64,000 bases of DNA from Rhodothermales bacterium (GTDB taxonomy: Bacteria; Bacteroidota; Rhodothermia; Rhodothermales; Bin80): assembly GCA_022821385.1 (NCBI GenBank), contig JAJEDR010000056.1, positions 28,038 to 92,037 of the forward strand, in the 5' to 3' direction. Made by a program: the position numbers and the translations under genes. The stretch's first letter is position 1, and every line of letters starts with the position of its first letter. A model generated the notes under the pieces. It saw nothing but the letters and a program-made list of their open reading frames with translations. It did no database searches and was not told the origin of the DNA. Below, one piece after another: positions 32,509 to 51,645 of the stretch.

Positions 32509-32537
32509 TTTTGATACTAGCTGATCTGATCCTCAAG

Positions 32538-35489: not shown

Positions 35490-35683
35490 ATTATAACTGA
35501 CATGGATGAACGTAAAAACGGAACCAGTGTAACTACGGACTGGAACGCGTGTTGCCGGATCGAGGGTTAAAAACAGGTTGCTCGCAGTCTACGGCCTGGA
35601 TTTCCGGCTTTGCCATGCTATGAATGCGCAGCCCAAGGATCCTTTAATGACCAGCTCTGCACCAGTAAGTTTGGATTAATACC

Positions 35684-37171
35684 ATGAATATAGTCCCCAA
35701 TATTATTCATCGTATGGTCCTGCGTCAACTTCCCGGTCCATTGCTGGGTTGGTTGGGTATGCTGCTTTTTTTGCTGTTAATGCAGTTTCTCATCAAGTTT
35801 CTGCCGGAACTGACCGGGCGTGACTTACCAATTGGAATCGTACTGGAACTCATCGCCTACAACCTGGCCTATATGGTGGTCTTGTCCGTACCGATGGCGG
35901 CACTATTGACTTCCCTAATGGTCTTCGGGTCACTGGCAGAATCTCGCACGTGGGTGGTGATCCGCAATTGTGGTATTACGCTGTGGGGGCTGACGTGGCC
36001 GGTATTTGCTGCCGCCATCTTCCTCACCTGGGGCATGGTCTACTTTAACAACGTGTTGCTGCCGGAATCAAACTTCAGAGCACGCAATATGTGGGAAACG
36101 ATCCGCACTGCCCGACCAGGATTCAGCTTAGAGCCCGGTGTATTCTACCAAGAAATTGATGACTACAGCATTCTGGTTGGCGAGCGGAATGGCAACCTCC
36201 TTCAGGACATTCTTATCTACGACTACACGCAAGGGGGCGTCAATGGCGCAACCATCCGGGCAAACAGGGGGGAACTGGTTCCACTTGGGAACGCGGTCAA
36301 CCTCATTCTGAACGATGGCGAAATGCACCGACTCACTCGCCGATCCGATGCACAAGGGACTGAACGATATGAAAAACTTGCCTTTGAGCGCCTACAGCTG
36401 CGTCTAGATCTCAGTGAGCTTGGGTTTCAGGTGCGTGATCCGTCCACCGGATATCGGTCGGATCGCTCCACTCCAATGGACCGCATGCTCAGCATCGTGG
36501 ATTCACTCGAGATCCGACTGTCAGAACAAGAAGCTGAGTTACGCGGCAGTATGCCGATGCCGCCCCCTGAACAAGAACCTGACGTTATGTCTACGGATGT
36601 TTCTCCCAGGAGCTCCTTGGAATGGCTTCGCAGTGAATCATTCTCCGCTTCAACTTCCGGTGCTAACCCAACAGAAGCAACAACAATGGCGCCTCGCGCC
36701 ATCCTGGACGGTTTAACCGAAGATCAAATGAAGCGCACTTACCAGCGTGCACGTGATTACGGCCGGGATGCCCGAAGCTCTATTGGCGGTAAAGGCAGAA
36801 ACCTGGAGCGTACAGCTTCGGCCATCAACCGCTATAAGGTCGAAATTCACAAGAAGTATTCGATTTCCGTCGCATGCTTCATTTTCGTCCTTATTGGCAT
36901 ACCACTTGGATTGAGTATCCGCCGGGGTGGTCTTGGAACTGCCGGAATGGTAGCAGTTGGCATTTTTCTCTTTTATTGGGTCACGCTGGTTCAGGGAGAA
37001 AAATTGGCAGACCGGGGGCTGCTCAGCCCCTGGATAGGCATGTGGTGCGCAAACATCATCATTGGCTTTGTCGGGATTTGGCTCTTCGTAAGGGTTTCGC
37101 TTGACATGCGTGCCCGACCACGCTATACCGGTAAATTCTTGTCAAGATATCTCACTGCAAAAGCGGAGTAG
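35684..37171 (+). CDS. LptF/LptG (YjgP/YjgQ) family permease with an enlarged periplasmic insert
   Basis: The N-terminal IIHRMVLRQLPGPLLGWLGMLLFLLLMQFLIKF and the TM pattern (3 N-terminal and 3 C-terminal helices) fit the family. A ~120-aa Ser/Pro/Glu-rich insert is present. Confidence 0.7.
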   Translation: MNIVPNIIHRMVLRQLPGPLLGWLGMLLFLLLMQFLIKFLPELTGRDLPIGIVLELIAYNLAYMVVLSVPMAALLTSLMVFGSLAESRTWVVIRNCGITLWGLTWPVFAAAIFLTWGMVYFNNVLLPESNFRARNMWETIRTARPGFSLEPGVFYQEIDDYSILVGERNGNLLQDILIYDYTQGGVNGATIRANRGELVPLGNAVNLILNDGEMHRLTRRSDAQGTERYEKLAFERLQLRLDLSELGFQVRDPSTGYRSDRSTPMDRMLSIVDSLEIRLSEQEAELRGSMPMPPPEQEPDVMSTDVSPRSSLEWLRSESFSASTSGANPTEATTMAPRAILDGLTEDQMKRTYQRARDYGRDARSSIGGKGRNLERTASAINRYKVEIHKKYSISVACFIFVLIGIPLGLSIRRGGLGTAGMVAVGIFLFYWVTLVQGEKLADRGLLSPWIGMWCANIIIGFVGIWLFVRVSLDMRARPRYTGKFLSRYLTAKAE

Positions 37172-37567
37172 ATCGCTGTGTGCGTTGTTAAGAACGGCTG
37201 TATATCATTGATTTGCCCCCTAAGCCAATAACGACTTGCTCTCTGCCTCTTTGAAATTTCCGTCTGACAATTTGCCGTCTCCATGAATGCATCCGCGCGT
37301 ATACACACGTACGACTCTTGGAGAAGGTTATCCCTATATTTATCACAAGATGCTGCACTAGGGAATCGATTTCATGTGCCGCTTAGTGCACCTCTCGGAC
37401 CCTACAGAAAGAACCTCGCAAATCGCCATTTCCAATTAGCAACCACCGGCACAAGCTGTCCTAACACTGCCAACGGACTGCGCTCGCACTGCAAGCGAAA
37501 CCTAAACAAGAATTCCGGCTATCAGTAGCCATGGTAGACATAATTGGATACCGACCACTTTATGCAT

Positions 37568-38941
37568 CTACATAAGCCAACGCAAACTGGCAAAGAGTGA
37601 CGCCAATACTCCCAGGGTTGCAAAGGCCGGATTGATCAAGTTTGCTCGAAGGGGCGGCCCGTAGATTCGCGGCATCAGCAAGTAGAAGACCATTGCCACG
37701 ATGCCTATGGCCAACAGACCGAGTCCTAGATCGCTCAAAAGGCCCAGAACCTCGGAGCCCGAAGCGTCGAAATCCATCTGACCTGTTCCTCGGGCGAAGG
37801 GGATGAGCAACGTTGGAACATAGATGAGCATCCAGCCGAGCCCTATCGCACCGATCAGCCGCACCGAACGGCGTCCCCGTTCGGGCTGGAGACTGATCCG
37901 TGAGACACCGTAAAGAGAGAGTTGGGCCGCAAACGTAGTGGCGAACGGTATAAGCAACCATCCCTCCTGGGCGATAGAATGAACAAATAGCCAGAGGAGT
38001 GCACCGCCGGCAATTGAGAGCATAGTGTATACAGTGTGGGAGCGTCGCTCGCTTGAGCGCGGCCACGCCAGCGTATGGATCACAAAAAAGACGAACGGAG
38101 CTATGAGCCACTGCCAGCCGCCCAGTGCAAAGGCCGCGTAGCCGAAAAGCGCACAACCAATGAGTGCACTGTCATCAAGCTTGCTGCGATACCGCCAAGC
38201 CAATGCAAACGCACCAAAGATGATGGCAGCCAACAGGCGGAAGAGGAGCAGCTGGGCGTCCTGATCGAGGTAGAGACGCAGAAATGCATGCGCACCTAGG
38301 GGAATGAAAAAATTGTCCAACCCGCGCCATGCCACAAGCTCAAGCATCATGACGAGGAGCGCAAGGATCGTCGCGATGAGAACGGCCTCCGCACGACCCG
38401 TGTCGGTCAAGAGTAGAAGCGGAAGGTGAGCGCTAAAAAATGCCACGAGGAAGAATGCCAATGACCCCTCAATGCTCTTGTAGCCATCCGAGGTCTTGTA
38501 TTGCGTTTGCCCGTAGCGAATACCCACCAGAGCTGCAACTGCATCAGCCAGCGCCAGCGTAAGGATCGGAACGACGTAGAGCAACCACTCGCCTTGGCTG
38601 ACTATGAAGAGCAGCGTGACCGAAATCGGGTAGTAAATCTCGCCGAGGCTGTCCCGGCCTACGCCGCCCAGAACGGTTCCAATGCCGCTGCGCAAGTTGC
38701 GGATTGACCGCGTTACCAACAAGGCCGTACACGCGAGTACGGCCAGCACGACCATCGGCCATGCCTGATCAAATACCCACGGTAGCGGAAGAACGACCAA
38801 CCCCATGCCGACATGGACCCCCTTGCGGAGAACCTCAGGATGAAAACGACTCCTCTTCTCCACTGCCTTGAGACCAACCAAAAGCACAGCGAGCGCAGCC
38901 AGCACGGCCGCCATGGCAAGGAGGTTTGATACGAGTGTCAT
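37568..38941 (-). CDS. Polyprenol (phytol/dolichol) kinase / CdsA-like CTP-transferase-family membrane protein with an extra ~240-aa C-terminal membrane domain
   Basis: RKGVHVGMG and LADAVAALVGIRYGQTQYKTSDGYKSIEGSLAFFLVAFF resemble the G-D-x-x-A-x-x-x-G...K-S-x-E-G motif of the VTE5/SEC59/CdsA family. Confidence 0.55.
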   Translation of the reverse strand: MTLVSNLLAMAAVLAALAVLLVGLKAVEKRSRFHPEVLRKGVHVGMGLVVLPLPWVFDQAWPMVVLAVLACTALLVTRSIRNLRSGIGTVLGGVGRDSLGEIYYPISVTLLFIVSQGEWLLYVVPILTLALADAVAALVGIRYGQTQYKTSDGYKSIEGSLAFFLVAFFSAHLPLLLLTDTGRAEAVLIATILALLVMMLELVAWRGLDNFFIPLGAHAFLRLYLDQDAQLLLFRLLAAIIFGAFALAWRYRSKLDDSALIGCALFGYAAFALGGWQWLIAPFVFFVIHTLAWPRSSERRSHTVYTMLSIAGGALLWLFVHSIAQEGWLLIPFATTFAAQLSLYGVSRISLQPERGRRSVRLIGAIGLGWMLIYVPTLLIPFARGTGQMDFDASGSEVLGLLSDLGLGLLAIGIVAMVFYLLMPRIYGPPLRANLINPAFATLGVLASLFASLRWLM

Positions 38942-38955
38942 CTATGCACGACAGT

Positions 38956-40092
38956 TCAATCAGGAGCTGAGCCATCTGCACGGCGGCCCGCTCCTGCTGT
39001 GACTGTTTCGACAACAAAACGGCTGTAGAAGAACGCCTTGTCTTGGAGATGAAGCCTCTCGGCAAGCTCCGTGTGCGAATTAAGGGTATGGGACAACTCC
39101 GGTGGACGACTGCGAGGCACCAGCATGTTCCAGTACGCGAATCGCGCCCCGTCGCGCGAGCGTGCGGCTAGTTTTGAGAGCAGCTCATGAAAATTCTCGT
39201 CGGACATGTATTCGAAAATGTCGCTAAGGTTGTAGCAGTCGACTCGAAGTTCAGGCTCGGACGCGAGAAGTTCCTCAATCGACATACAATGCCATTCCAG
39301 CCGGTCCAGATTCTCCCGGATGACGTCGAAATTCTCTCTCCTTAATGCATGCGGAAGAGCCGTGGTGTGACGGCCGGTGAGTATCCACTGGAGGTAGGGG
39401 TTGGCCGCGGGGTCGAGTTCGGTAAGAGCGTGCTTTGCGCGCGCAAGGATCCGTTCCGAAACCGAACCCTCGACATAGCGGAAAAAGGCCGGATCCCGTC
39501 CCATCCTACCCATTACGAAGCGAGAAAAGAAAAGTCGAAAAAGGAATTCCCAGCGCCGGTTGGCCCAGTGCCGATCGTAGAAGCGACGGCGTTCCTCTGC
39601 AGTGCCTCCGGCCAGAAGTCGCTCGACTCGTTGCCGGGAATGGATCCAAGGCAGTATCTTGTTACGAAAGGCCGCGAAGTACTCCTCGAACTTGCCGGCG
39701 GAGCCGATGCCGGCTCGGACGAGCTGCGGGCGAGCGTCCCAAAAGGCCCGGGCTTCGGCTTTGAGAACACCGCGGCACCGTAGATAAAGTGCTTCCCGAT
39801 CGTCGCATTCCCGCGAACCGATCAATTGAAGAAGCTGGTCGTGGTTAAGCACCCGATAGGCCGCGACTCGCAACTCGAGGCATGCCAATTGGGCTGGATT
39901 CATATCGACAGCTATCACACGGGCCGGACTACGTGAAAGTAGTGAGAGTGAGTTTTCCCCCGCCGAAGCAATAGAAAGGCAGACATCCCCTTCTTTGACG
40001 CCAAGTGCTTCCAAGAGGATATCGGCGTCCTCCCAGCACTGTGCATAGCGAATGAACGAGAAGTCGGCGCGGGCTGCTGCTTCAGTACTCAT
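38956..40092 (-). CDS. BtaA/DUF3419-family protein (SAM-dependent 3-amino-3-carboxypropyl transferase-like)
   Basis: IRYAQCWEDADILLEAL and the SAM-fold motif VCLSIASAGENSL are present. The start overlaps the upstream stop (ATGA at 40089-40092). Confidence 0.65.
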   Translation of the reverse strand: MSTEAAARADFSFIRYAQCWEDADILLEALGVKEGDVCLSIASAGENSLSLLSRSPARVIAVDMNPAQLACLELRVAAYRVLNHDQLLQLIGSRECDDREALYLRCRGVLKAEARAFWDARPQLVRAGIGSAGKFEEYFAAFRNKILPWIHSRQRVERLLAGGTAEERRRFYDRHWANRRWEFLFRLFFSRFVMGRMGRDPAFFRYVEGSVSERILARAKHALTELDPAANPYLQWILTGRHTTALPHALRRENFDVIRENLDRLEWHCMSIEELLASEPELRVDCYNLSDIFEYMSDENFHELLSKLAARSRDGARFAYWNMLVPRSRPPELSHTLNSHTELAERLHLQDKAFFYSRFVVETVTAGAGRRADGSAPD

Positions 40093-42827
40093 GCGTCGGC
40101 CTCCTTCCTCGATTGTGTAGAATGCTTGCTGTCATCCGAATCAGGCTCGGATTCAGGCCCGGCATCCAGGCGCACCGTGCCATGTGCGCCATCCATCTCC
40201 ACCCAACTGCCACTTTTGATCCGGGTGGTAACACCAGGGATGGAGACGATAGCGGGGATCCCCATTTCCCGTGCCACGATTGCCGAATGCGAAAGCAAGC
40301 TGCCGCGCTCAACCAATATTCCGGCAGCGGCCGGGAAGAGCATGATCCATCCAGGATCGGTACGCTCCGCTACCAGGATCTCTCCCTGTTGCAGCTCGGC
40401 CCCTCGTGGATCACGAATTACGCGCGCCCGGCCCTTCACGATACCGGGACAGCAACCAATGCCGCGAAGTGCATCCGTCCCTTGGGCTTCGTTGTCTTCG
40501 GCCCGACTCGCTGCGTTCTCAGCGTAGCTATTGGCAATGTAGGGGGCTCCAAAGGTTTCGAACCGGTCGGCTGGAGTTTCGAGTTTGGCGTAGCGCTCGA
40601 AGGCGCGACGGCGAATGCCTGCGAGACCACGAAGATCCTGGCATGTGACGGCTCCCTCGGTGTAAGACAAGATTTCATCGATGTCCAGGTAGAAGATGTC
40701 ACGTGGATCATCAAGGACGCCCTCGGCAAGGAATCTGCGCCCGATCTCGAGGAAGATTCTGCGTACGCGACCAAAAAGACGGGTGCGCTCAAACCTCAGA
40801 TTCTCACGATCACGCACGCGCCTCCGGGCATTGCGAAGTACCCAAGCGAAGATAGTACGCCGCAGAATGCGCCTGCCCAAGGCACGACGAACCCTCTCCT
40901 CGGCGCGCCTCCGCACGTCCGAAGAGATACCGCTCTCGAACGCTTGACCGCGTGCAAGCCTGGCGGCGGCGTGACCGATTGAGCGCAGCAAGGGCTCAGG
41001 GTCATCAAACAACGTCGTGGACTCAAGTTTGAGCTCATCGAGACAGCGGTCACCGAAAACATTGAGGTAATCGTCGTAGAGCCGCGCCAACTCGTTGTGG
41101 TCGCGCAAGGACCGGATGGCCGCCGTCGTTGCACCGTGGCAGAGCACATCAATCAACTCGTCGCGTCGCGCCGCGAGTGTGGCCATCTCGACGATGCGCC
41201 TCGCGGGCTCGGCACTGATCATGCCTCCTTGATCGCACACCAAGTCGTTTTGCAGGGAATCGTGTTCGTCCTTCTCGCCGGGACACCACCCGGACGTCAG
41301 ACGACCGAGCACACCGAAAAAAATCATGGCAAAGAAGTCGTTGATCAACGGCGCATCCCAGCGCGTAAGCAGTGTCGACTCAAGCGCGCGGTAGTCGGCT
41401 GCGAGTTGATCAAGACGCCTTGCATCAAGGGGCGGGTCCGGCGGAGCGAGCGCACGGTTTAGGCGGTCATAAAACCTTTCAATCATGTGTGGTAGCCGGA
41501 CTTGGTTGACTACCATTCCAGCCATGGTGTACATCATTCGAAGCAGGTCAAGTAGGCGCGCCGACCGGGAGGCGTTGGATTGCGTAGCCGTGATCTCGTC
41601 TGGAAGGCCCTCGCGGACGCCCATCATCTGCTCCATGAAGCGGCGATTGAATGTATAGCCCGGCAGCATCGCGATTACGCGATACCAGTTAAGGAGGTTG
41701 TAATAGACGCGACCGCGGATCAGCCCAAGCATTCGCTGAAATGTTAGATCGTTGGCTGCAATTCTAGCCTTGGAAACACCCAGAAGACGACAGAATTCGC
41801 GGTACACACCCTCGTAGGCATGCAGCGCAAAACTGAAGGTCAGTGGCGTGGTGATTCCGTTGTAGCTCTCTACGATGTTTGAATTGTCCCAGATGGCACG
41901 AACGCCGTCGGGATCCGGAGTGGCTACCAGAGAGGTGATCGGCCGCGATTGCAGCAGGAATAGATCCCCATCGTACATTGCCCACTCAATATCTTGGGGT
42001 CGTCCGAAGTGCCGCTCTGCGCGGCGCGCTAGCTCCGCAACCCGCATGGCCTGCTCATCAGTGAGCGACGGTTCGGAGGCCGCAGGCTCCAGGATTTCCT
42101 GCGTGGCAACGCCGAGGGGACTGTCAGGGGCCGGCCGATGTGCGAGTTGCTTGGCCACAATATTGCGCTCAAGGATCGTTCCGTCAAAATGGACCCGCCA
42201 AGTATCAGCATCGGCATCCCCACCAACCAGCGCCGTACCTAGGCCGCGTAGCGCGGAAACAACCGCAACGGAGCGACGTCCGGTAACCGGGTCAGCGCTG
42301 AAGGCGACCCCAGAGACCTCGCTGTCCACCATCGCCTGCACCAATACTGCTGGAGCCTGTGGTAGACCTGACAAGTCATTCTCGCGCCGGTAGGCCAGAA
42401 CGCGTTCGCTGAACCCAGACCTCCAAACATCGACTACGCGAGTCGGCAGATACTCGCGGGTCACGGACAGAAAGCTGTCGAACTGACCGGCAAATGAGTG
42501 CTCCACTCCGTCCTCCTGAATTCCAGACGAGCGCACCGCGACGAAACGACTGTCGCTGCTCAGTGCTGCGAAATGCCCCTCTACTTCCTCCATGACCTTG
42601 GACGCCGGTAGGACCTCGGCAAAGAACGCGCGAATGCTTTCCTGATTCTCCGCTTCGAGCAGGGTCCGGCGCTGAACCGGCGAAAGACTGGCTTCAAAGG
42701 CATTCGGCGCAATGACAAACCACACCGGAATCTTCAAGCCGGTGCGGGAGAGTGAGGCTAGAGCTGCTGCCTTGCCCCCCATCCGGCCAACATCAACCCC
42801 ACTCAGTTCTGAAAGCACAAAGTTCAT
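40089..42827 (-). CDS. PEP-synthase-like phosphotransferase with rifampicin-phosphotransferase-type domain order (ATP-grasp, unknown central domain, C-terminal His swivel)
   Basis: The N-terminal PPDK_N-like motif is GGKAAALASLSRTGLKIPVWFVI. The C-terminal PEP-utilizer swivel motif is GSLLSHSAIVAREMGIPAIV. The ATG at 42827 forms ATGA with the UbiA stop; the listed ORF start at 42911 is probably too long. Confidence 0.7.
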   Translation of the reverse strand: MNFVLSELSGVDVGRMGGKAAALASLSRTGLKIPVWFVIAPNAFEASLSPVQRRTLLEAENQESIRAFFAEVLPASKVMEEVEGHFAALSSDSRFVAVRSSGIQEDGVEHSFAGQFDSFLSVTREYLPTRVVDVWRSGFSERVLAYRRENDLSGLPQAPAVLVQAMVDSEVSGVAFSADPVTGRRSVAVVSALRGLGTALVGGDADADTWRVHFDGTILERNIVAKQLAHRPAPDSPLGVATQEILEPAASEPSLTDEQAMRVAELARRAERHFGRPQDIEWAMYDGDLFLLQSRPITSLVATPDPDGVRAIWDNSNIVESYNGITTPLTFSFALHAYEGVYREFCRLLGVSKARIAANDLTFQRMLGLIRGRVYYNLLNWYRVIAMLPGYTFNRRFMEQMMGVREGLPDEITATQSNASRSARLLDLLRMMYTMAGMVVNQVRLPHMIERFYDRLNRALAPPDPPLDARRLDQLAADYRALESTLLTRWDAPLINDFFAMIFFGVLGRLTSGWCPGEKDEHDSLQNDLVCDQGGMISAEPARRIVEMATLAARRDELIDVLCHGATTAAIRSLRDHNELARLYDDYLNVFGDRCLDELKLESTTLFDDPEPLLRSIGHAAARLARGQAFESGISSDVRRRAEERVRRALGRRILRRTIFAWVLRNARRRVRDRENLRFERTRLFGRVRRIFLEIGRRFLAEGVLDDPRDIFYLDIDEILSYTEGAVTCQDLRGLAGIRRRAFERYAKLETPADRFETFGAPYIANSYAENAASRAEDNEAQGTDALRGIGCCPGIVKGRARVIRDPRGAELQQGEILVAERTDPGWIMLFPAAAGILVERGSLLSHSAIVAREMGIPAIVSIPGVTTRIKSGSWVEMDGAHGTVRLDAGPESEPDSDDSKHSTQSRKEADA

Positions 42828-43777
42828 ATCAATTCTCTCAAGAATAGCGGAGCCGGTCCCAAACTCAGGTAAAGCACAAGCGTCCAAACTCCAGACCAAT
42901 TTTCGATCCACTTGCCTGCCTGCGGAGTTTGGCGACGCAGAAAGCTCAATCCTGTGAACACCGCAACGCCGAAAGTCATGCTGAGGACAATCGCCAGTGG
43001 CAGGAAGAAATCAATCCGGTGTGCGGCTATGCAGGCGCAAGCGAGCGTGAGCCCCATTACCAACCACCATGCACCCAGCGCCCGCTTCCGACCCCACACG
43101 GCAGAATACGTGGGTACGCCCTGCTCCTCATCTTGCGGACTGCGAATCTTACGACCGATTTCGATCACCATGCCATTGAATAGGCTGGCCAGCAGAAACC
43201 AGAAGAGCCCGGATGGAGGATAGCCCTGATAGGCCAGCCAGTCGGTGCTCGTCGCATAAAGATCGACGAGCGGCATGATGGCCATGTGTGAAATCATGTA
43301 CGTAAGGGGTTTGCCGCGCAGCCATTTCTCCACGAAGAACTCCTTGCTCATCAGCGCTTGGTATGTCCAGGTTACAAGAAGCAAGACCAGAAGCCGTGCG
43401 TCCAACCAAAGGGCTAAGCCGACCTGAACAATGGCGCCCAGTACGAAGAGGCTGCCTAACTCGCGCAAGCTCACCAGACCTCGCGGTACTGGACGGTACG
43501 GCCGATATAGCGCGTCCTCTTCTTCATCCTTGAACTCGTCTGCGATTCGTAGCTGGAGAAAGAAGATCAGGCAGGAACCGAACGCAACTACCACGGACAA
43601 GAGACTGGGCCATCCAGCAGTCGATCGCAGCATCCAAGCGAAGGCGACGGCACTAAAACTGAAGGCAAGGATCAGCGGCCCGTGCTGCACGAGCGGGAAA
43701 CGCTCCTTCTGGTACACCCACCAGCGCAAAATCCCCTTGCTGCGGGCGGTGCTTGAGACCTTTTCTCCGCCAGTCAT
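42824..43777 (-). CDS. UbiA-family prenyltransferase
   Basis: I count about 8 TM helices. The Asp-rich loop is RIADEFKDEEEDALYRPYRPVPRG. The ATG at 43777 forms ATGA with the HMGR stop (43774-43777); the listed start at 43867 is probably too long. Confidence 0.65.
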   Translation of the reverse strand: MTGGEKVSSTARSKGILRWWVYQKERFPLVQHGPLILAFSFSAVAFAWMLRSTAGWPSLLSVVVAFGSCLIFFLQLRIADEFKDEEEDALYRPYRPVPRGLVSLRELGSLFVLGAIVQVGLALWLDARLLVLLLVTWTYQALMSKEFFVEKWLRGKPLTYMISHMAIMPLVDLYATSTDWLAYQGYPPSGLFWFLLASLFNGMVIEIGRKIRSPQDEEQGVPTYSAVWGRKRALGAWWLVMGLTLACACIAAHRIDFFLPLAIVLSMTFGVAVFTGLSFLRRQTPQAGKWIENWSGVWTLVLYLSLGPAPLFLRELI

Positions 43778-45045
43778 CGCGCCAGCGTTTGGTGCGCCCT
43801 CGTGAAACCATGCGACGACAACGCGGCACTGATTGATAGCTCGCCTGCCAGCACCAGAGCCGCGCATACCTCGGCAAAAGCCGCCGAATTTCCCGGACCG
43901 GCCAGCTTGAGAATATCCATACAGGCATTCTGACTCGGCAGGCCTGTCCCGCCTCCAACCGTGCCCAAGATGAGATTGGGAAGCATGATCGAAGCATACA
44001 GGCCGCCTTCTTCAGCAGACTCAAAACGGGTCACACCCACAGCAGATTCGGCTACGCAGGCAGCATCCTGGCCGCAGGCAATGAAGAGGGCCGCCATTCC
44101 GTTGGCATAATGCCCCTGTATCCCAATGTTGCCACTCATGACACCGCCGATTGTCGCAGCGCGGTAGAAGTCCAGCATTCGGCGGGCATTTGTCTTCAGA
44201 TGTCCTTCGAGGATTTCCCGCGTAAGCGTAACCTCTGCCGTAACCTTTTTTCCACGAACGTTCTGAAAGGACAGATGGGATGCCTTCTTGTCTCCCGAAT
44301 GATTGCCTTCGACAAACCAGTAGGCGGGCTGAACCGGAGTCTGATCCAGAATGAAGCGGCAAACCGCATCAGTCGCAATCGTGACCATATTCTGTCCTGA
44401 AGCATCGCCGGTAACAAATTCGAAAATCAGGTAGATGTGGTTGCCCTCAACATTAAAGCGGGTACGGATGAGCAGACCATGACGTGTGGTGGACGCGGCT
44501 ATTTCCCTGAACGTCTCCACATGCTCGCTGGCCCACATGATGAACTTACCGACCTCGATCAGATTGTTGAATGCGAAGACGGGAGCACGAGTGACGCCCT
44601 CCCAAATTGCAGCTGCAGTACAGCCACCAGCCTGAGTGATGGCCTGCGCCCCCCGCGTGTAGGACGCTACGAGAGCGGCTTCCGTCGTGGCAAGGGGCAC
44701 ATAGTAGTCTTCTTGCGCGAATAGCCCCCGAACTCGCAACGGTCCTGCAAGCCCAATCGGAATCTTCGCAGTACCGATAAAGTTCTCGATGTTCTTGCTG
44801 TACGAACTCATCTGTTGACGCGTCATGGCATCAAATAGCTGTTGCCTCACCGATGCGTCTACATCTAGCATTTGCCAGCGTTGATCAACTGCCTCGGAAG
44901 AAATTGTCCCGGGCGCATCGCCTCGGGATACGCTTGGTGGGATGCCTTCCAATGAAGGCATCAGATCCTGCTCGATTTCCTGAGGGGAGCGTTCGGCGAG
45001 CAGGCGCTTGAAATAGCCCTGCACGCCCCGGAGATCAGCTGACAT
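43774..45045 (-). CDS. Class I hydroxymethylglutaryl-CoA reductase (catalytic domain only)
   Basis: ENFIGTAKIPIGLAGPL, PLATTEAALVAS (catalytic Glu), TGDASGQNMV, SGDKKAS (Asp/Lys) and the C-terminal SSHGF (His) are present. Confidence 0.8.
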   Translation of the reverse strand: MSADLRGVQGYFKRLLAERSPQEIEQDLMPSLEGIPPSVSRGDAPGTISSEAVDQRWQMLDVDASVRQQLFDAMTRQQMSSYSKNIENFIGTAKIPIGLAGPLRVRGLFAQEDYYVPLATTEAALVASYTRGAQAITQAGGCTAAAIWEGVTRAPVFAFNNLIEVGKFIMWASEHVETFREIAASTTRHGLLIRTRFNVEGNHIYLIFEFVTGDASGQNMVTIATDAVCRFILDQTPVQPAYWFVEGNHSGDKKASHLSFQNVRGKKVTAEVTLTREILEGHLKTNARRMLDFYRAATIGGVMSGNIGIQGHYANGMAALFIACGQDAACVAESAVGVTRFESAEEGGLYASIMLPNLILGTVGGGTGLPSQNACMDILKLAGPGNSAAFAEVCAALVLAGELSISAALSSHGFTRAHQTLAR

Positions 45046-46642
45046 GGCGTTTGAGTTCTTTTTCGAGTGATGAGTAGTCTATTTTTGCGTTGTGACGGCG
45101 ATCAACCGGTATTCGCGGCAGTCGCACCACCCTGTCGAGATGTGCCCAGGATAGCGCCTCTAACACGCGTCGCTCCGCGTCCGCTGGAGCTCGCGGACCC
45201 AGCTGTACAGCAAGCAGGCGCTCGCCGCTGAGTCTAGCAAGGGCGCTACGCTCGATCCAGTCCAAATTGCTTGCTGCACATTCCGCGGCGAAGGGATAGA
45301 TCGTGCCACGCGTGTCCTGAATGACGGCGCCAGCGCGCCCTAGAAGCCATAGCCGACCTTCGGCGTCCATATAGCCAGCGTCACCGGTACGATGCCAAAC
45401 CTCGCTTCCAACGCGGAACTTGGTTTCCTCGTCACCAACTCCGTTCAGGTAGCCGGTAAGAACATGGGGACCGCAAACAATGATTTCGCCCGGGTGCTCC
45501 GGAGGGAGTATTAAATCAGCGAACTCTTGCGCACTCGTGGCCGGCAGGGGCTCTCCCCATCGGTTGTCCGCAATACGAAGGTCAATTTGATGCACAGGCC
45601 TTCCGACCAGAAGCCCCTTTCCAGCATACATTGCGGCCAGATCGCTGGCACTCGCATCGTCCCAGTCAAGATGTGATATGGGCTCTGCCTCTGTGGACCC
45701 ATAGACCACAATAACTCGACCCTGTGGCATCGCCGCGCGAAGTTCATGCAACAGACGGGGAAAGACAGGAGCGCCGCCAGTATAAAGTTTTTCGAGCATG
45801 CCAAGGCGTACCCTTCCTTTCTCGCTTTCTTTCCCTGCAGCTTCACGGGCCCCCTCAAGCAACCTGTCGTACAGCGCCGGAGAGCCAACGGTCCGAGTAA
45901 TGCCGTGGTGCTCGAGTTGCTGAAGAACCGGGCCAGGCTCTATGAAGCCGGGTCGCCGGAGGTCGCATTGCGGAATTATTGAAGTGACGCCTGAGGCCAT
46001 ATTGGCTAGTACAAAGATCGGCAGGGTAGCGAGATCGACTTCACGGGGTTCCAGGTCGATGGACTCTGCCAAAACAGAATGCTGAGCCCGCAAAAATCCA
46101 TGACTGCGGACTGTCGCCTTAGGCTGTCCGGTGCTCCCGCTTGTGAATGTGAGTAGAGCTTCGTGCGACGAATTGCAAGTAGCGATCGAGTCCCGGGGGC
46201 TCAGATGTTTGAGTGTGGACCAGCGAACTGCGTTAGGGGCCCAACCTGCAGTTACGAAGTGGTGCTTGACTTGACGTAAACCTTTACAGATAAAACGTAA
46301 TATATGCGCCCGCGCCGGACCTAGGAAAGCCTTCGGACGAGCAATCTCGCAACACTGTTCAATATGTCTCCGTCCTGCAGACGGATCAAGCACAGTGGCC
46401 ACCAGCCCAAGACGGAAGATGCCCAGGAGTGCAACGTAGAGCTCAATGGACATCGGCTGAAAAAGAAGCACTCGATCACCCTTAGTCAACCCTGACATGC
46501 GAAACAACGCCGCAGCCCTGGCCGACCGTTCGGCAATCTGGGCAAAACTGAGCGTGCGGGTCCCTCTTCCAGCCCCTTCAACAATAGCCGGTCGGTCAGG
46601 GTATCTTGCGGCCTGCTCAATCAAGATATGACAGATATTCAC
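45035..46642 (-). CDS. ANL-superfamily adenylate-forming enzyme (acyl-CoA ligase / OleC-like)
   Basis: TSGSTGQPK, YGSTE, HRTGDAGY and the C-terminal PVDRRHNAKIDY are present. Confidence 0.8.
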   Translation of the reverse strand: MNICHILIEQAARYPDRPAIVEGAGRGTRTLSFAQIAERSARAAALFRMSGLTKGDRVLLFQPMSIELYVALLGIFRLGLVATVLDPSAGRRHIEQCCEIARPKAFLGPARAHILRFICKGLRQVKHHFVTAGWAPNAVRWSTLKHLSPRDSIATCNSSHEALLTFTSGSTGQPKATVRSHGFLRAQHSVLAESIDLEPREVDLATLPIFVLANMASGVTSIIPQCDLRRPGFIEPGPVLQQLEHHGITRTVGSPALYDRLLEGAREAAGKESEKGRVRLGMLEKLYTGGAPVFPRLLHELRAAMPQGRVIVVYGSTEAEPISHLDWDDASASDLAAMYAGKGLLVGRPVHQIDLRIADNRWGEPLPATSAQEFADLILPPEHPGEIIVCGPHVLTGYLNGVGDEETKFRVGSEVWHRTGDAGYMDAEGRLWLLGRAGAVIQDTRGTIYPFAAECAASNLDWIERSALARLSGERLLAVQLGPRAPADAERRVLEALSWAHLDRVVRLPRIPVDRRHNAKIDYSSLEKELKRHVS

Positions 46643-46718
46643 AGTCGCTCACGTTAAACGACAAATAACAGTTTCATTGCAGGTTCACACACGACAACAT
46701 TAGCCACCCTGTACTGGA

Positions 46719-46738
46719 CTAAGGCTAATCAGCCTTAG
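46719..46738. promoter_or_regulatory. Perfect 8-bp inverted repeat (ctaaggct-aatc-agccttag) in the GNAT to ligase spacer
   Basis: Read directly from the sequence. It lies 77 nt upstream of the ligase start and 231 nt downstream of the GNAT stop. No U-tract follows on the transcribed strand. Confidence 0.3.
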
Positions 46739-46969
46739 ACGCCCCTAATTTAACCAATCGGTATGATGTTTCCGCAGTGTGGGCTAATAGTTTGTGGCTT
46801 TGGTTGGTTTGGTGTCGTTTTTCGTGGGATTTCGGGGAGATTTTGATCAAATTTACCTGCTCATGTACATGCCAAGATCCCCAACCTCAACTCAAACCAC
46901 ACTTGGCTTACCCGGAAGTTAAAATGCGCAAACAGAATTAAAACGATGGTTGTAATGGTCACAGCACGG

Positions 46970-47959
46970 CTACAGGGGTTTCTCGTACAGCGTGTAGCGA
47001 CGGATAGTAGTCCCGTAGTGGCTCGAAATACGCCGTGACCAGTTGGTCTCCTGCATAAGCGCATGAATGGCGCGTACGAATCCGAGGCCACGTGCCGCCC
47101 GTTGACATTCATCCATTAGCATTCCACCGATTCCGTGTCCGCCGTATTCTGGATGCACAGCCATAGACTTTACAATTGCCGTGCGTGTAGGCTCGCCCCT
47201 CCCCGATTCCAACAGGTCCGGGATCGCGAAGATGAAGCCTATAAGTTGCTCGCCGTGGTCCGCGAGAAGTACCATTTCGGGCAAAAGATATTCGCGGATT
47301 GGAGCGTACGTAGCCAGAAACTTCTCAAATGAAATGGGGCTGTAAAGTAGATTGCGCGTAAATGCGACTAGAGATAGCTCATGGATGGCCGCGAGTTCGT
47401 CCTCGAAACGCGCCAATTCGAACGTCCGTAAGGTGATGCCGTTGCGCTCAAGCTCGGTTCGCCGCTTGTCGGAGCGGGAATCAACTCGGCTAAGGTCGGC
47501 ATTGAGCGCCGAGGTATAGGTCGCCATGGGCACGAATCCGGCGTCACTGAAATGCCCCGGCCACTCGTCTGGATTGTCCGGCTCCAAAAAGAATGCCGGT
47601 TCGGTCCCGCGGTCGGTCAGCAGCCTGTAGCGGTGCCATGTGGACCCGTCCATCGGACCAATGACCCGTTTACGTCCCTCAACCCGATGTCGGTGCGAGG
47701 CGTGCTCTAACAGTTCCTTTCCGGCATCGGCGTTGGCTGCTGCATAGTGACCAACAAGACCGTCCGATGTCGACGCTCCACTAGCATCGCACCTTTCCCA
47801 CAGCGAACAACGGGCGACTAGCGCACCAGTCGTGTCGTGGAGTGCCAAGTGGCACATTGGATTGGTAGACTGGAAGCTCTCAGGGTTCAACAACTCCACC
47901 GACCCATCCCGCAAGGACATCAGATCTTCTATGCGCTTGACAATGGTAAGTGAATTCAT
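46970..47959 (-). CDS. Two-lobed GNAT-family N-acyltransferase
   Basis: The C-terminal acetyl-CoA-binding type motif is IVKSMAVHPEYGGHGIGGMLMDE. An N-terminal GNAT-like half is also present. Confidence 0.65.
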   Translation of the reverse strand: MNSLTIVKRIEDLMSLRDGSVELLNPESFQSTNPMCHLALHDTTGALVARCSLWERCDASGASTSDGLVGHYAAANADAGKELLEHASHRHRVEGRKRVIGPMDGSTWHRYRLLTDRGTEPAFFLEPDNPDEWPGHFSDAGFVPMATYTSALNADLSRVDSRSDKRRTELERNGITLRTFELARFEDELAAIHELSLVAFTRNLLYSPISFEKFLATYAPIREYLLPEMVLLADHGEQLIGFIFAIPDLLESGRGEPTRTAIVKSMAVHPEYGGHGIGGMLMDECQRAARGLGFVRAIHALMQETNWSRRISSHYGTTIRRYTLYEKPL

Positions 47960-48909
47960 AGCTCCTACGGCTCTCAGACTTTGCCCAACCTCACCGCAAA
48001 TGAAACTGGCTCTTCCTGCTGTATATATTAACTGGTCTTCCCACTCTGTACTATACAGACGGCCCCCGTACCGGGCTAATCCGTGTTAGGTTCCCCTGAT
48101 CATGCTATTTCGGTATGACCATTCCGCGGTTTTGAGTTGAAACCTCTTGGATCCAGTGTGCTAATGCCCGAAATATCGTCCCAAGCCGGGAAAATGGAGG
48201 ATGATATAATTCACTCCGAATCGCAGCGGTTTCTTAGCGCTCATGTTGGACAAGCACACCATCTACGACGTAAGTGGGCTTAATGACTGAGCGTTATTCG
48301 GACCAAAGGCACAACTCCGGATCACGAACTTGGCGGGATCTTGGTAATATTCTAGTTCCTGCTCGGTATCTGCAGATGGCACGGAGTGACTCATCACCGT
48401 GGAGGATCGCCATATTGCCAAGACATTGACGTATCCCCGAAAAATTGGGGAAACATTTGCCGCTCAAATGGAACTGCCTTATGATCCCTCAACCTTCCTC
48501 ACACGGGCTGCATTACGATCCCGGGGCTGGCCTGTATCAGCCCCCAGTTGGATAGGCCCGCCATCGAACAACTCACTATGACCTCTGAGCAGGTTTTCCC
48601 GTACATAACAGCCGGATCTGACTAGCGCCAGCCGCTAACATTAACCAATCATTTGACTCGAAACGGTACCGCAAATGGCCGAACAGTCCTTGAAAACGTA
48701 CGTGGGACTCACCCCAGGCTTGGACCGAATGGACCCCTCATCGGATGGCCACCTCTTGACCAACCTACCCAAATATTCGTTCGGGAATCGTTCCACTGAA
48801 AGTGTGTACAATTGATCATACGTGCGGGTAATTGGTTGGAGGCTAGCCGCGCATTTTTGCTAAATCTCTACGGCCGCCAGTACAATCATAGGAACCATCT
48901 GACCACTTA

Positions 48910-49584
48910 ATGCTCTACTTGGTACCCACTCCCATCGGCAATTTGGCTGACGTTACATTCCGTGCGATAGAGGTGCTGGGGACCGTAGATCTTGTGGCCT
49001 GCGAAGATACCCGACGTTCCGCTATCCTTTTAACGCACTACGGTATCGACACGCCAACGATCAGCTACCATGATCATAACGAGCGCCAACGCGCACCGCA
49101 GTTGATAGAACGAATGGAGGCGGGACAACAGGTGGCTCTGATCAGTGACGCGGGTTCGCCTGGACTGAGCGATCCCGGGTTTTATCTAGTCCGCCTATGC
49201 TGGGAGAAAAACATCCCCGTGCAGGCACTACCCGGGTCCACTGCACTGATTCCTGCGCTCACTGCAAGTGGACTGCCTTCTGAATGTTTTGTGTTTGAGG
49301 GATTTCTGCCCCATAAAAAAGGCCGCAATAAGCGCTTGGAAGCAATTCGTGCAGAGACGCGCACAATTGTACTCTACGAGAGTCCACACCGGCTCATCCG
49401 AACACTGAATGACCTGGTAAATACTCTGGGACCCGAACGTACCGGGGCAGTTGCCCGGGAGTTAACCAAAAAATTTGAAGAAATCCATCGAACGAGTCTG
49501 CAAAGACTACTTGAATATTTTCGTAGCAAGACTACAATCAAAGGGGAATTCGTGATTATCATTGCACCCCCTGCCTTTAACTGA
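48910..49584 (+). CDS. rsmI: 16S rRNA (cytidine1402-2'-O)-methyltransferase
   Basis: MLYLVPTPIGNLADVTFRAIEVL..ACEDTR is present. Confidence 0.9.
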   Translation: MLYLVPTPIGNLADVTFRAIEVLGTVDLVACEDTRRSAILLTHYGIDTPTISYHDHNERQRAPQLIERMEAGQQVALISDAGSPGLSDPGFYLVRLCWEKNIPVQALPGSTALIPALTASGLPSECFVFEGFLPHKKGRNKRLEAIRAETRTIVLYESPHRLIRTLNDLVNTLGPERTGAVARELTKKFEEIHRTSLQRLLEYFRSKTTIKGEFVIIIAPPAFN

Positions 49585-49591
49585 ACCGTAC

Positions 49592-50233
49592 ATGTCTACC
49601 ACTTACGTCACACCATTCACATTTAGTGACTTTGCCACGAACTGCTATGTCTGCCATAGTGACGGGGAAGCTGTCATTGTGGATGCCAGCTGTTCGACTG
49701 ACAAAGAAACCTCGGAAATTGTCAACTATGTCAACGCAAACAATCTTAGCGTGCGGCATCTGTTACTCACGCATGCACACATTGACCATATCCTGGGGTG
49801 CAACACTTTGGCGAAGCAGTTCGGCCTTGCATGGCAAGCCCACCGAGATACCTCCATCTGGCTTACTGGGGCACCAGCTCAGGCATTACTGTACGGCATA
49901 CGAATGATGCAGCCCCCCAAAGTCGGTAACTGGCTAAATGAAGGGGATATTGTACAATTTGGGAGTGCCCAATGGCGGATCCTGCACACTCCCGGGCACG
50001 CGCCTGGCTCGATCTGTTTTGTGGATGAGGCCAACGATTTTGTCATCGCCGGTGATGTGCTTTTTAGTCAATCCATCGGACGAACAGACTTGCCAGGCGG
50101 AAATATGGGAACCCTCATGGCATCCATTTTCCAGAAACTGCTCACGCTGCCAAACAACACGCTAGTCTATTCCGGCCACGGCCCGTCTACCACAATCGGT
50201 GCTGAGCGCAGGGACAATCCATTTCTGGTGTAG
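49592..50233 (+). CDS. MBL-fold metallo-hydrolase (glyoxalase II-like)
   Basis: THAHIDH and HTPGHAPGS are present. The ATG at 49592 follows the rsmI stop; the listed TTG at 49562 overlaps rsmI. Confidence 0.8.
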   Translation: MSTTYVTPFTFSDFATNCYVCHSDGEAVIVDASCSTDKETSEIVNYVNANNLSVRHLLLTHAHIDHILGCNTLAKQFGLAWQAHRDTSIWLTGAPAQALLYGIRMMQPPKVGNWLNEGDIVQFGSAQWRILHTPGHAPGSICFVDEANDFVIAGDVLFSQSIGRTDLPGGNMGTLMASIFQKLLTLPNNTLVYSGHGPSTTIGAERRDNPFLV

Positions 50234-50237
50234 TGGC

Positions 50238-51353: not shown

Positions 51354-51645
51354 GAAATCAAAGCTTTGTTTCCGGTAGGAACTCGGTCAGCCCATCCTGA
51401 ACACCCTGTATATCGTAAGGAATGAAATGTTGAGTATCCTTTGGTGTCTTGGGGTTAAGAGTTACGAAGAAGTTAAGGCTAAGAATTTAGATTTAGCCAG
51501 ACCTCTCCGATCTTCTCCCAGCGCTAGACAAAACGGTACTTTCTTTTTCATCATGTTACGTGGATAACTCCCCGGGAAAAACCAATTGTCTCCTGTGCTT
51601 TGCGCGCTCGGGCAGAGCACAGCGTGAAAGGCGCATAGAGTGCTA

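Follow-up and report, generated by a model that had tools for sequence, protein, structure and literature searches.

An inserted seven-gene orphan operon in a Rhodothermales genome, possibly for a prenylated membrane metabolite

The segment from position 37179 to 48876 of the window (the whole stretch of 64,000 nucleotides analysed here) is an insertion, since a close Rhodothermaceae relative, L086, has an empty site with the same flanks. With moderate confidence, this insertion is read as horizontally mobile and as carrying a self-contained seven-gene orphan operon for a membrane-associated, prenylated small molecule or lipid (Table 1). Between the same flanking genes the window holds 11,698 bp and L086 only 263 bp. 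By blastn, window positions 35654-37178 match L086 positions 8184-9705 at 89.5% and positions 48877-53185 match 9969-14278 at 86%, the nucleotide identity of the two genomes being about 88%. The flank proteins are 82–96% identical between the window genome and L086. The cluster proteins of the two genomes are 75–85% identical, and in L086 the cluster lies about 600 kb from the empty site. The window flank genes were found beside the cluster in no other locus. Horizontal acquisition, which an earlier sequence-only reading took as probable, or else relocation, is shown by this empty-site comparison, which is much stronger evidence than base composition.

Table 1. Features of the inserted segment, in window coordinates
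Feature	Position	Strand	Basis or remark
Inserted segment	37179..48876		Empty-site comparison, L086
Non-coding downstream end of insertion, 389 nt	37179..37567		blastn boundaries
Polytopic membrane protein, 457 aa	37568..38941	-	Predicted; conserved N-terminal domain of ~200 aa, C-terminal half variable
DUF3419 (BtaA-family) SAM-dependent transferase, distinct subfamily, 378 aa	38956..40092	-	Pfam, full-length
Rifampin-phosphotransferase-type dikinase, 912 aa	40089..42827	-	Pfam, NCBIfam, PDB
UbiA-superfamily membrane prenyltransferase, unnamed subfamily, 317 aa	42824..43777	-	Pfam, profile search
Class I HMG-CoA-reductase-like (HMGR) NAD(P)H thioester reductase, 423 aa	43774..45045	-	Pfam, PDB comparison
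ANL (AMP-forming) ligase, 535 aa, PRK09274/OleC-related clade	45035..46642	-	Pfam, NCBIfam
Non-coding gap GNAT-ANL, 327 nt	46643..46969		Atypical; a 4-nt overlap is usual in other loci
Tandem-GNAT acyltransferase, 329 aa	46970..47959	-	Pfam, AF2, Foldseek
Non-coding upstream end of insertion, 917 nt	47960..48876		No ORF of note

The gene-bearing island has a GC content of 57.0%, whereas all other 10.4-kb windows in the 64 kb reach at most 53.1% (mean 51.9, sd 0.8). In 1-kb bins, GC is 51–60% inside the island versus about 51% in the flanks, and the tetranucleotide deviation is highest at 37.5-45 kb. The compositional shift reported before (58–67% against 47–48%) is therefore real in both windowed GC and tetranucleotides, but its size is about 5 points and not 10–20, and the RSCU codon usage of the island is not distinct. 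The long antisense ORFs are present as described. First, second and third codon positions all have elevated GC, so that part of the shift reflects amino-acid composition. Much or most of the offset is intrinsic to the cluster, because in 54 other genomes cluster GC tracks that of the host (43–73%), with a median of 2.6 points above the flanks.

The upstream end of the insertion, which gave no Rfam match and resembles none of the other cluster loci, presumably holds a promoter or regulatory region. Near the downstream end, a terminator-like hairpin is found at 37531-37516 of the minus strand; sites of this kind show no excess over shuffled sequence. The neighbours of the insertion in the window are envelope genes, encoding LptF/G, a TMEM260-like protein and a GT2.

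The seven minus-strand genes were confirmed by the ORF check, and ORFs and junctions together support one tightly coupled operon. Three ATGA overlaps (43774-43777, 42824-42827 and 40089-40092), the 11-nt overlap of ANL and HMGR (45035-45045), the 14-nt gap from DUF3419 to the membrane protein and the 327-nt gap from GNAT to ANL can all be read in the sequence. The ATGA overlaps place the start of UbiA at 43777, giving 317 aa, and that of the kinase at 42827, giving 912 aa, rather than at the starts of the longer ORFs; a UbiA of 317 aa is also found in the gene call on an identical public contig, and homologue alignments begin at residues 29–40 of the longer kinase ORF, in agreement with 912 aa. 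At most junctions the median is a 4-nt overlap, with -4 nt across 55 loci between GNAT and ANL, and the GNAT-ANL gap of the window resembles no sequence in the other loci.

In almost all loci of sufficient length among the 80 examined, the seven proteins occur together; these loci represent Rhodothermales, Gemmatimonadota, Latescibacterota, Actinomycetota, Planctomycetota, Verrucomicrobiota, Acidobacteriota, Methylomirabilota, Eisenbacteria, Chloroflexota and Gammaproteobacteria. The set is complete also in Cyanobacteria and Bacillota, and it occurs on an alphaproteobacterial plasmid, where the record ends inside HMGR. At least 541 species genomes were matched in the scan; among the carriers in culture are Brevibacillus laterosporus, Leptolyngbya and Roseinatronobacter. 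The loci revealed no eighth conserved gene, the genes inserted in some clusters being unrelated, and the unit has no prenyl-diphosphate synthase, transporter or regulator. It is clear that the gene set is not scattered in other genomes: inheritance and transfer both keep the seven genes together, and their translational coupling is conserved. The enzyme classes named at the outset are supported by Pfam and NCBIfam, and the failure to assign them to a characterised pathway still holds, as none of the seven proteins reaches a curated NCBIfam equivalog cut-off and literature searches found no description of this operon.

The interpretation offered with those classes stands only in part. It listed carboxylate activation and thioester reduction, which as a linear route would have the ANL ligase turn a carboxylic acid into a CoA thioester and HMGR reduce this to an alcohol, which is then phosphorylated, used by UbiA, aminocarboxypropylated and N-acylated. 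The 11-nt ANL/HMGR overlap in the window, which equals the median for the 23 loci where ANL adjoins HMGR, is consistent with such a route, as is the HMGR pocket described below. However, two gene orders exist that are circular permutations of each other (35 versus 22 of 57 loci), and in 35 of the 57 the operon begins with HMGR and ends with ANL, so that the two lie at its opposite ends. Moreover, GNAT and ANL always travel as a pair, fused in locus L068, and some 12 of about 60 clusters (~20%) have an intact ANL but no HMGR. For these reasons the conserved, organising logic is not one of ANL feeding HMGR, and the linear route is rather unlikely. The operon consists of two sub-modules, GNAT-ANL and (HMGR)-UbiA-dikinase-DUF3419-membrane protein.

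The HMGR matches Pfam HMG-CoA_red (1.7e-111) and shares with class I (archaeal-type) enzymes about 50% identity (6hr7, from Methanothermococcus), the catalytic Glu/Lys/Asp/His and the GTVGGGT motif; it differs in scoring under the TIGR00533 cut-off (323 bits against 441.8), in its pocket and in belonging to a unit without other mevalonate-pathway genes. Judged against only two canonical sequences, Ser is replaced by Glu in the cis-loop and DAMGMN by DASGQN in all 59 cluster HMGRs, and GRGKS to VRGKK is a further invariant change. The substrate pocket thus appears altered and the catalytic residues intact. A non-HMG acyl-CoA is plausible as substrate, because the differences from canonical enzymes lie at residues fixed in 100% of cluster HMGRs. 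The loss of HMGR in about 20% of clusters, with the kinase always kept, argues against the kinase acting on the HMGR product.

The UbiA protein, with more than 4,000 homologues, has a Pfam match of 51.5 bits (1e-13), and all its NCBIfam hits are far under cut-off. A profile search against the PDB aligned both Asp-rich motifs with chlorophyll synthase (9e-6) and DGGGPS (2e-5). Chlorophyll synthase (ChlG) and DGGGPS both O-prenylate, which, as these are the nearest solved relatives, suggests an oxygen nucleophile for the UbiA of the operon, although at E about 1e-5 the link is a weak one. UbiA enzymes also make quinones, haem O and decaprenyl-phosphoribose. Together with the envelope genes beside the window copy, this range could point to a prenylated cofactor or carrier lipid, such as a prenylquinone- or chromanol-like compound or a polyprenyl phosphate decorated for use in building envelope glycans. 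That product is nevertheless improbable, since the envelope neighbours are not conserved beside the cluster elsewhere and the unit has no genes for aromatic precursors, ring methylation or glycosyltransferases.

The dikinase comprises an ATP-grasp domain, a central domain and a phospho-His swivel, without the PEP/pyruvate TIM-barrel domain, a layout shared with RPH and PigC/RedH-type enzymes. Pfam finds only PPDK_N (2e-57) and PEP-utilizers (9e-25), and the Leptolyngbya orthologue is annotated with an Rph_4th domain. In the PDB the dikinase is closest to 5hv1/5fbs, and the RedH and PigC NCBIfam models align to the full length. It differs from these enzymes in scoring far under the equivalog cut-offs (PRK06241.2-2, 796 bits against 883; RedH, 360; RPH, 325 against 999), in its place in a biosynthetic operon and in a family-specific central domain. 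The swivel motif LLSHSAIVARE is visible in the translation, and at the sequence level the swivel His and the two UbiA Asp-rich motifs are seen to be intact. As the closest solved relative is rifampin phosphotransferase, GNAT acetylation of antibiotics is common and the segment is mobile, the island might serve xenobiotic or antibiotic modification, with the RPH-type enzyme and GNAT inactivating a toxin and the extra HMGR giving target-level resistance. This is very improbable in view of the RPH equivalog score and of the strict co-conservation and coupling with UbiA, DUF3419, ANL and the membrane protein, unexpected of resistance genes. PADLOC also assigns six of the seven proteins to no defence family, its only hit, a weak one, being the DUF3419 SAM-binding region (residues 21–83) to mad2 (E 7e-5).

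The membrane protein falls into no Pfam or NCBIfam family. It has an all-helical AF2 model (pLDDT 91), and its N-domain, the only part kept in Blastocatellia, carries a CdsA/polyprenol-kinase-like signature with invariant or near-invariant D133, A136, G140 (at least 90%), G144, K155, S156, E158, G159 and S160. The former label 'polyprenol-kinase/CdsA-like' rests on this motif and on the names 'phytol kinase' or 'diacylglycerol/polyprenol kinase family' that some sources give to homologues; it failed every statistical test run, since no kinase was identified by Pfam, by NCBIfam, by a profile search of the PDB, by Foldseek or by hhalign with E. coli CdsA. In plant and cyanobacterial phytol salvage, VTE5 is the phytol kinase and VTE6 the phytyl-phosphate kinase. 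That system, which feeds chlorophyll synthase and homogentisate phytyltransferase, shares three components with the operon, namely a kinase-like protein in the membrane, another phosphotransferase and an enzyme of the UbiA family, and the UbiA of the window is nearest, weakly, to chlorophyll synthase. It differs in that the second kinase of the operon is an RPH-type His-swivel dikinase and not DUF92 (the VTE6 family, weakly matched by 4 of 30 membrane-protein homologues), the kinase assignment of the membrane protein is statistically unsupported, HMGR, DUF3419, GNAT and ANL have no counterpart, and the hosts are mostly non-phototrophs. The salvage analogy and the isoprenoid affinities of HMGR, UbiA and the 'phytol kinase'-named protein would suit isoprenoid precursor supply or prenol salvage, a non-canonical route in which HMGR, two unconventional kinases and a prenyltransferase make or recycle prenyl diphosphates, with GNAT, ANL and DUF3419 as accessories. 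Such a role is improbable: the unit has no homologues of HMG-CoA synthase, mevalonate kinase, decarboxylase or IPP isomerase, HMGR is dispensable, and DUF3419, GNAT and ANL are conserved as strictly as the 'isoprenoid' genes.

BtaA moves a 3-amino-3-carboxypropyl group from SAM to a lipid hydroxyl in the DGTS pathway. The DUF3419 protein shares this Pfam family (5.6e-76, full length), and a betaine-type lipid had been suggested, in which it would act as BtaA on diacylglycerol in phosphate-sparing membrane remodelling. This is highly unlikely, because the unit has no BtaB-type N-methyltransferase and two of the six other enzymes are of ATP-consuming kinase type, not phosphate-sparing. In the operon the amine would be N-acylated by the tandem GNAT instead of being methylated. 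The protein is, furthermore, only 27–30% identical to rhizobial DUF3419 proteins, but 45–59% identical to the Brevibacillus and Roseinatronobacter cluster copies. It could also catalyse methyl transfer or another SAM reaction.

In the acyltransferase, Acetyltransf_1/7 (Pfam, 8e-10) match residues 226–300, in the C-terminal half, which is a GNAT domain; the N-terminal half also has a GNAT-like fold but lacks the motif that Pfam recognises. The best Foldseek matches of its AF2 model (pLDDT 89) are MAB_4324, a GlcN N-acetyltransferase, MshD and a clavulanate tandem GNAT (E 1e-16 to 1e-11). The ANL ligase matches Pfam AMP-binding (2.7e-56), PRK09274 with 375.7 bits (cut-off 478) and the OleC models with 222 and 204 bits (cut-offs 900 and 850); no close solved structure was found for it. 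The operon shares an HMGR, a ligase that forms acid-CoA thioesters and a GNAT of two-domain layout with the fungal fusarinine siderophore branch (HMGR, mevalonate, SidI, SidH, SidF), in which SidI is the mevalonyl-CoA ligase and only the C-terminal half of the two-domain GNAT SidF has the GNAT motif (PMC3709128, PMC11751504). This is an analogy only: the operon has no SidH-type hydratase, hydroxyornithine or NRPS genes, and the PDB profile search found no sequence similarity of SidF to the GNAT of the window.

The product is most likely a prenylated, SAM-aminocarboxypropylated and N-acylated membrane metabolite, its steps being deduced from the enzyme classes and their order conjectural. At the membrane, UbiA would use a prenyl diphosphate to prenylate an oxygen nucleophile, and the dikinase, with the kinase-like N-domain of the membrane protein, may supply or recycle the phosphorylated substrate, from alcohol to phosphate to diphosphate, by a route analogous to the one by which VTE5/VTE6 feed UbiA-type transferases in plants. 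DUF3419 would place the 3-amino-3-carboxypropyl group of SAM on a hydroxyl of the lipid intermediate, giving a homoserine-type head group joined by an ether link; its free amine could be N-acylated by the tandem GNAT with the acyl-CoA made by ANL. By the precedent of fungal SidI and SidF, HMGR may supply a mevalonate-like hydroxy-acid for this acylation; alternatively, it may reduce a pathway acyl-CoA to an alcohol. It would be dispensable in the hosts without HMGR. Kept in hundreds of bacterial species from about 14 phyla, the operon is an orphan pathway, conserved as a unit.

The seven minus-strand open reading frames described in the sequence-only reading are all present in the window, and each of the enzyme classes named there was recovered by Pfam, the 457-aa polytopic membrane protein being left without a family. 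The junctions could likewise be read off the sequence: ATGA overlaps at 43774–43777, 42824–42827 and 40089–40092, an overlap of 11 nt between the ANL ligase and the HMGR-like reductase, and gaps of 14 nt and 327 nt. The region had further been called GC-rich by 10–20 points on the basis of spot counts; the shift is genuine, but it amounts to 5 points, with 57.0% GC in the island versus at most 53.1% in other 10.4-kb windows of the 64 kb (mean 51.9, sd 0.8). The tetranucleotide deviation within the 64 kb is maximal at 37.5–45 kb, the island does not stand out in codon usage (RSCU), and all three codon positions share in the higher GC.

Genes of the cluster and the Pfam domains assigned to their products (window coordinates)
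Feature	Position	Strand	Source
GNAT	46970–47959	minus	Pfam
AMP-binding (ANL)	45035–46642	minus	Pfam
HMG-CoA_red	43774–45045	minus	Pfam
UbiA	42824–43777	minus	Pfam
PPDK_N + PEP-utilizers (dikinase)	40089–42827	minus	Pfam
DUF3419	38956–40092	minus	Pfam
457-aa polytopic membrane protein	37568–38941	minus	no Pfam family

The host is a Rhodothermaceae bacterium, the RsmI of the window clustering at ≥90% identity with proteins of Rhodothermaceae MAGs. In a close relative with a 3.55-Mb chromosome the neighbouring genes and their order are those of the window (TMEM260-like, LptF/G, RsmI, MBL hydrolase, a 371-aa protein, a 274-aa protein and GT2), and LptF/G and RsmI are almost adjacent. Nucleotide alignment to this relative covered window 35654–37178 at 89.5% and 48877–53185 at 86%; between the aligned flanks there are 11,698 bp in the window (37179–48876) versus 263 bp in the corresponding stretch of the relative (L086), a presence/absence polymorphism at a conserved site of the kind by which genomic islands are recognised. 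The segment 37179–48876 is an insertion, and the empty site shows that it was acquired horizontally, as had been proposed, or relocated. A separate copy of the cluster (L002) is present in the relative about 600 kb away, with proteins 75–85% identical to those of the window; since identity among the backbone proteins that surround the site is 82–96% (median about 94%), the two copies are not positional orthologues. In 80 other loci the cluster never has a flanking gene of the window as its neighbour. No integrase or mobility gene was found in the inserted segment and no tRNA gene in the 64 kb, and the junction has neither a target-site duplication nor terminal or flanking direct repeats.

Base composition was of little use as a sign of recent transfer and was mostly rejected as such: across 54 genomes with a host GC of 43–73% the GC of the cluster follows that of the host, and in 91% of hosts, whatever their GC, it exceeds that of the flanks (median +2.6 points). 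In four loci (L008, L054, L021 and L015) it stands 9–13 points above the flanks, the usual difference being 3, which suggests comparatively recent transfers into those hosts.

Within the inserted segment, the 917 nt upstream of the first gene (47960–48876) have no convincing ORF, no Rfam match and no similarity to other cluster loci; they may represent a promoter or regulator-binding region, or a remnant of the carrier of the insertion. An imperfect 24-nt direct repeat (79% identity) is found upstream of the ANL gene (46880–46903) and again upstream of the GNAT gene (47984–48007); it may be a regulatory site common to both genes or have arisen by chance. The Rfam scan returned nothing beyond a xanthine-riboswitch (NMT1) match on the plus strand at 38406–38482, antisense in the membrane-protein gene, which with 22 bits versus a gathering score of 36 (E 0.35) is almost certainly due to chance; promoter and terminator scans gave counts at or below shuffle expectation. 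Outside the segment, the relative (L086) has two tandem copies of the TMEM260-like gene (~982 aa), the duplication including part of the LptF/G gene, and the single window copy at 32064–35643 aligns to both L086 1–3558 and 4953–8103 (88.8% and 87.6% nucleotide identity). Window 53015–56108 encodes a 683-aa protein with a GT2 glycosyltransferase in its N-terminal half and a polyprenyl glycosylphosphotransferase-like C-terminal half, its ORF overlapping the next long one (54888–56108), and the region downstream of the island looks like an exopolysaccharide-type locus.

The UbiA protein of the window has more than 4,000 homologues, and when one genome per species was scanned, relatives turned up in at least 541 species, the seven-gene unit being spread over about 14 phyla and at least 541 species-level genomes. 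When the seven window proteins were compared by tblastn with the best 80 loci, all seven were co-located in almost every sufficiently long locus. The carriers comprise Rhodothermales, Longimicrobiales/Gemmatimonadota, Latescibacterota, Acidimicrobiia, Planctomycetota/Phycisphaerae, Verrucomicrobiota, Acidobacteriota, Methylomirabilota, Eisenbacteria, Anaerolineales and several Gammaproteobacteria. Complete sets also occur in the cultured cyanobacterium Leptolyngbya sp. FACHB-541 and the cultured Firmicute Brevibacillus laterosporus B9, where the cluster lies at about 463.6–474.5 kb of NZ_CP011076.1, and the cultured Roseinatronobacter sp. S2 has a plasmid-borne copy, annotated with generic RefSeq names only, whose stretch ends inside HMGR at the end of the record. 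Among the 80 loci there is no further gene family that keeps company with the seven; a NYN nuclease, a HepT/MNT pair and an opposite-strand carbamoyltransferase inside some clusters were considered and dismissed as unrelated passengers. Two of these, in two lineages, sit between UbiA and the kinase in antisense orientation, namely a NYN/OST-HTH nuclease gene (L072, 7801–8604, minus) and a HepT/MNT-type toxin–antitoxin fusion (L081, 3616–4287, minus). The copies from Rhodothermales, Longimicrobiales, Latescibacterota and Acidimicrobiia are 64–90% identical to that of the window, and as the cross-phylum copies are as close as those within Rhodothermales, transfer between phyla is indicated. One of the closest loci comes from the SB06xx MAG series, the series that also yielded the sponge-specific Entoporibacteria, and the other closest bins are presumably of sponge origin as well.

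The genes occur in two arrangements. The order GNAT-ANL-HMGR-UbiA-kinase-DUF3419-membrane protein was found in 22 loci, the window among them, and its circular permutation HMGR-UbiA-kinase-DUF3419-membrane protein-GNAT-ANL in 35. The block from UbiA to the membrane protein is invariant in order, and GNAT and ANL always move as a pair, being fused in an Acidobacteriaceae MAG into one 855-aa ORF without internal stop (L068, 14997–17564). An apparent fusion of DUF3419 and the membrane protein (L013, L014) was rejected, the two being separate genes in different frames with a 4-nt overlap. The translational coupling of the cluster genes is conserved, with a median junction of −4 nt for GNAT>ANL, HMGR>UbiA, kinase>DUF3419 and DUF3419>membrane protein. 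About 12 of about 60 clusters, of both gene orders, lack HMGR, and in these ANL abuts UbiA (for example L008 and L019). From the two permuted orders and the clusters without HMGR it follows that the ANL/HMGR overlap in the window is a by-product of one of the orders; it provides no evidence that ANL feeds HMGR, and that idea was not upheld.

The UbiA protein exceeds the Pfam cut-off (51.5 versus 34.2 bits) and has invariant residues D80, D84, D88, D216 and E217 in two Asp-rich Mg-diphosphate motifs, both of which align with chlorophyll synthase. By NCBIfam it belongs to no named subfamily (UbiA, MenA, ChlG/BchG, DGGGPS, SCO3242 and others); its best match is PRK13592 with 86 versus 443 bits, and BchG reaches 29 versus 212. 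Among solved structures it is weakly nearest to chlorophyll synthase and DGGGPS, both of which prenylate oxygen nucleophiles. A prenylquinone or ether-lipid pathway was rejected, partner enzymes being absent from the unit. The dikinase has the RPH-type architecture of ATP-grasp (PPDK_N), central domain and His swivel (PEP-utilizers), with the catalytic histidine in LLSHSAIVARE, and Pfam found no PEP-utilizers_C, that is, no C-terminal PEP/pyruvate domain. It scores far below the equivalog cut-offs for RPH (NF041857, 325 versus 999) and PEP synthase (TIGR01418, 246 versus 740), and equally far below those for PigC/RedH models. With this RPH score and a biosynthetic context, a rifamycin-resistance locus was rejected.

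The membrane protein, a candidate member of the CdsA/polyprenol (phytol, dolichol) kinase superfamily modelled with a pLDDT of 91, contains an invariant motif D-xx-A-xxx-G-xxx-G...K-S-x-E-G-S, of which the form D-xx-A-xxx-G-xxx-G...K-[ST]-x-[EQ]-G is shared by eye with E. coli CdsA, and the JGI and NCBI pipelines give homologues of the protein the names 'phytol kinase' or 'polyprenol kinase family'. No significant match was obtained with Pfam including domain-split scans, with a PDB profile search, with hhalign against E. coli CdsA, or with NCBIfam, where the homologues named 'polyprenol kinase' gave none either; Foldseek against the PDB had no match at E ≤ 0.001. Some lineages keep only its N-terminal domain of about 200 aa.

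The HMGR-like reductase matches PF00368 over the full catalytic length (373 bits, residues 53–423) and shares about 50% identity with 6hr7, a class I enzyme from an archaeon. Its catalytic Glu (ENxIG), Lys (DKK), Asp (GQD) and C-terminal His align with those of 6hr7 and the A. thaliana enzyme and are kept in 59 cluster HMGRs, and the TIGR00533 equivalog cut-off is not reached (323.3 versus 441.8 bits). The canonical HMG-binding pocket, with its cis-loop Ser and DAMGMN, is not present in the cluster HMGRs: judged against two canonical reference enzymes only, all 59 have Ser replaced by Glu in the cis-loop, DAMGMN by DASGQN, DKKP by DKKA and GRGKS by VRGKK, the Ser-to-Glu change (at Glu246) and the Met-to-Gln change being 100% conserved. 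The cis-loop serine presumably corresponds to human Ser684, which contacts the HMG carboxylate, and the HMGR-like enzyme may possibly act on an altered substrate. A mevalonate pathway was rejected, HMGR being its sole member in the unit; HMG-CoA synthase, mevalonate kinase, phosphomevalonate kinase and the decarboxylase are found neither in the unit nor as conserved neighbours.

The DUF3419 protein matches its Pfam model over the full length (256.6 bits) and is 27–30% identical to rhizobial DUF3419 proteins. It shares this domain with the BtaA of the DGTS pathway; the unit differs in containing no methyltransferase that could be the N-methylating partner BtaB, and in the divergence of its DUF3419, and on these grounds the DGTS pathway was rejected. 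We infer for it, from sequence, a 3-amino-3-carboxypropyl transferase that would act from SAM on a lipid hydroxyl. Neither this protein nor the N-domain of the GNAT has relatives among solved structures by sequence. The GNAT has a tandem two-domain fold with the Pfam motif in the C-terminal half only; Foldseek matched it to MAB_4324 (E 4.5e-16, TM 0.65), and the fold also resembles MshD and GlcN N-acetyltransferase. The ANL protein has an AMP-binding domain of the PRK09274/OleC-related clade and no close solved structure; with 222 and 204 bits versus OleC equivalog cut-offs of 900 and 850, it is by profile score related to OleC, yet not OleC.

These assignments can be arranged into a putative assembly line that would be membrane-associated. 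UbiA would O-prenylate an acceptor from a prenyl diphosphate, and the dikinase together with the kinase-like membrane protein would generate or recycle a phosphorylated substrate, in analogy to the VTE5/VTE6 phytol salvage that feeds UbiA-type transferases. DUF3419 would transfer the 3-amino-3-carboxypropyl group of SAM onto a hydroxyl, and the resulting amine would be N-acylated by the ANL/GNAT pair. [quoted passage not shown] Of all this, only the modular organisation of the operon and the intactness of its catalytic motifs are directly observed. That the product is a prenylated, aminocarboxypropylated and N-acylated membrane metabolite has, in our estimation, an even chance of being correct, and any single step, substrate or the order of steps is far less secure and a matter of conjecture.

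A bolder proposal is that the operon makes a new class of membrane lipid. The product would be an amphiphile, glycerol-free or non-canonical, that has an isoprenoid tail attached by a new O-prenylating UbiA subfamily; its head group would derive from the aminocarboxypropyl moiety of SAM, N-acylated with a mevalonate-like acid; the RPH-type dikinase would be a novel prenol or prenyl-phosphate kinase; and the whole would have spread horizontally between phyla, sponge symbionts included. Taken jointly, we consider these claims rather unlikely. If they hold, what the operon confers would be a trait of the membrane or surface that can pass from host to host and that has an ecological role, symbiosis being one example.

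The island had been said to match no characterised pathway, and this stands, none of the seven proteins reaching an NCBIfam equivalog cut-off. A full-text search of the literature available without subscription found no description of the operon; the 'lipocone' paper and the cly-cluster paper deal with some of the domains in unrelated contexts. A defence system was rejected by PADLOC. The cluster can be classed as an orphan isoprenoid/amino-lipid-type biosynthetic operon, in which known superfamilies occur in an unprecedented combination. The sequence-only reading was right in what it observed and partly supported in its interpretation.

The finding is larger than a single odd island, the operon being widespread, mobile and strictly conserved. 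With Brevibacillus laterosporus B9, Leptolyngbya sp. FACHB-541 and Roseinatronobacter sp. S2 there are cultured carriers in which its function is directly testable. Once the product is identified, functions would follow for several uncharacterised subfamilies: the large one of UbiA, the HMGR-like one whose pocket is altered, an RPH-type dikinase that has no part in antibiotic resistance, a non-BtaA branch of DUF3419 and a membrane protein family without a Pfam model. Orphan operons with so wide a distribution usually have a function that is of general ecological value, and the occurrence of 70–85% identical copies across phyla, partly in sponge-metagenome bins (as supported for the SB06xx series only), suggests that this one may be a transferable trait relevant to symbiosis.
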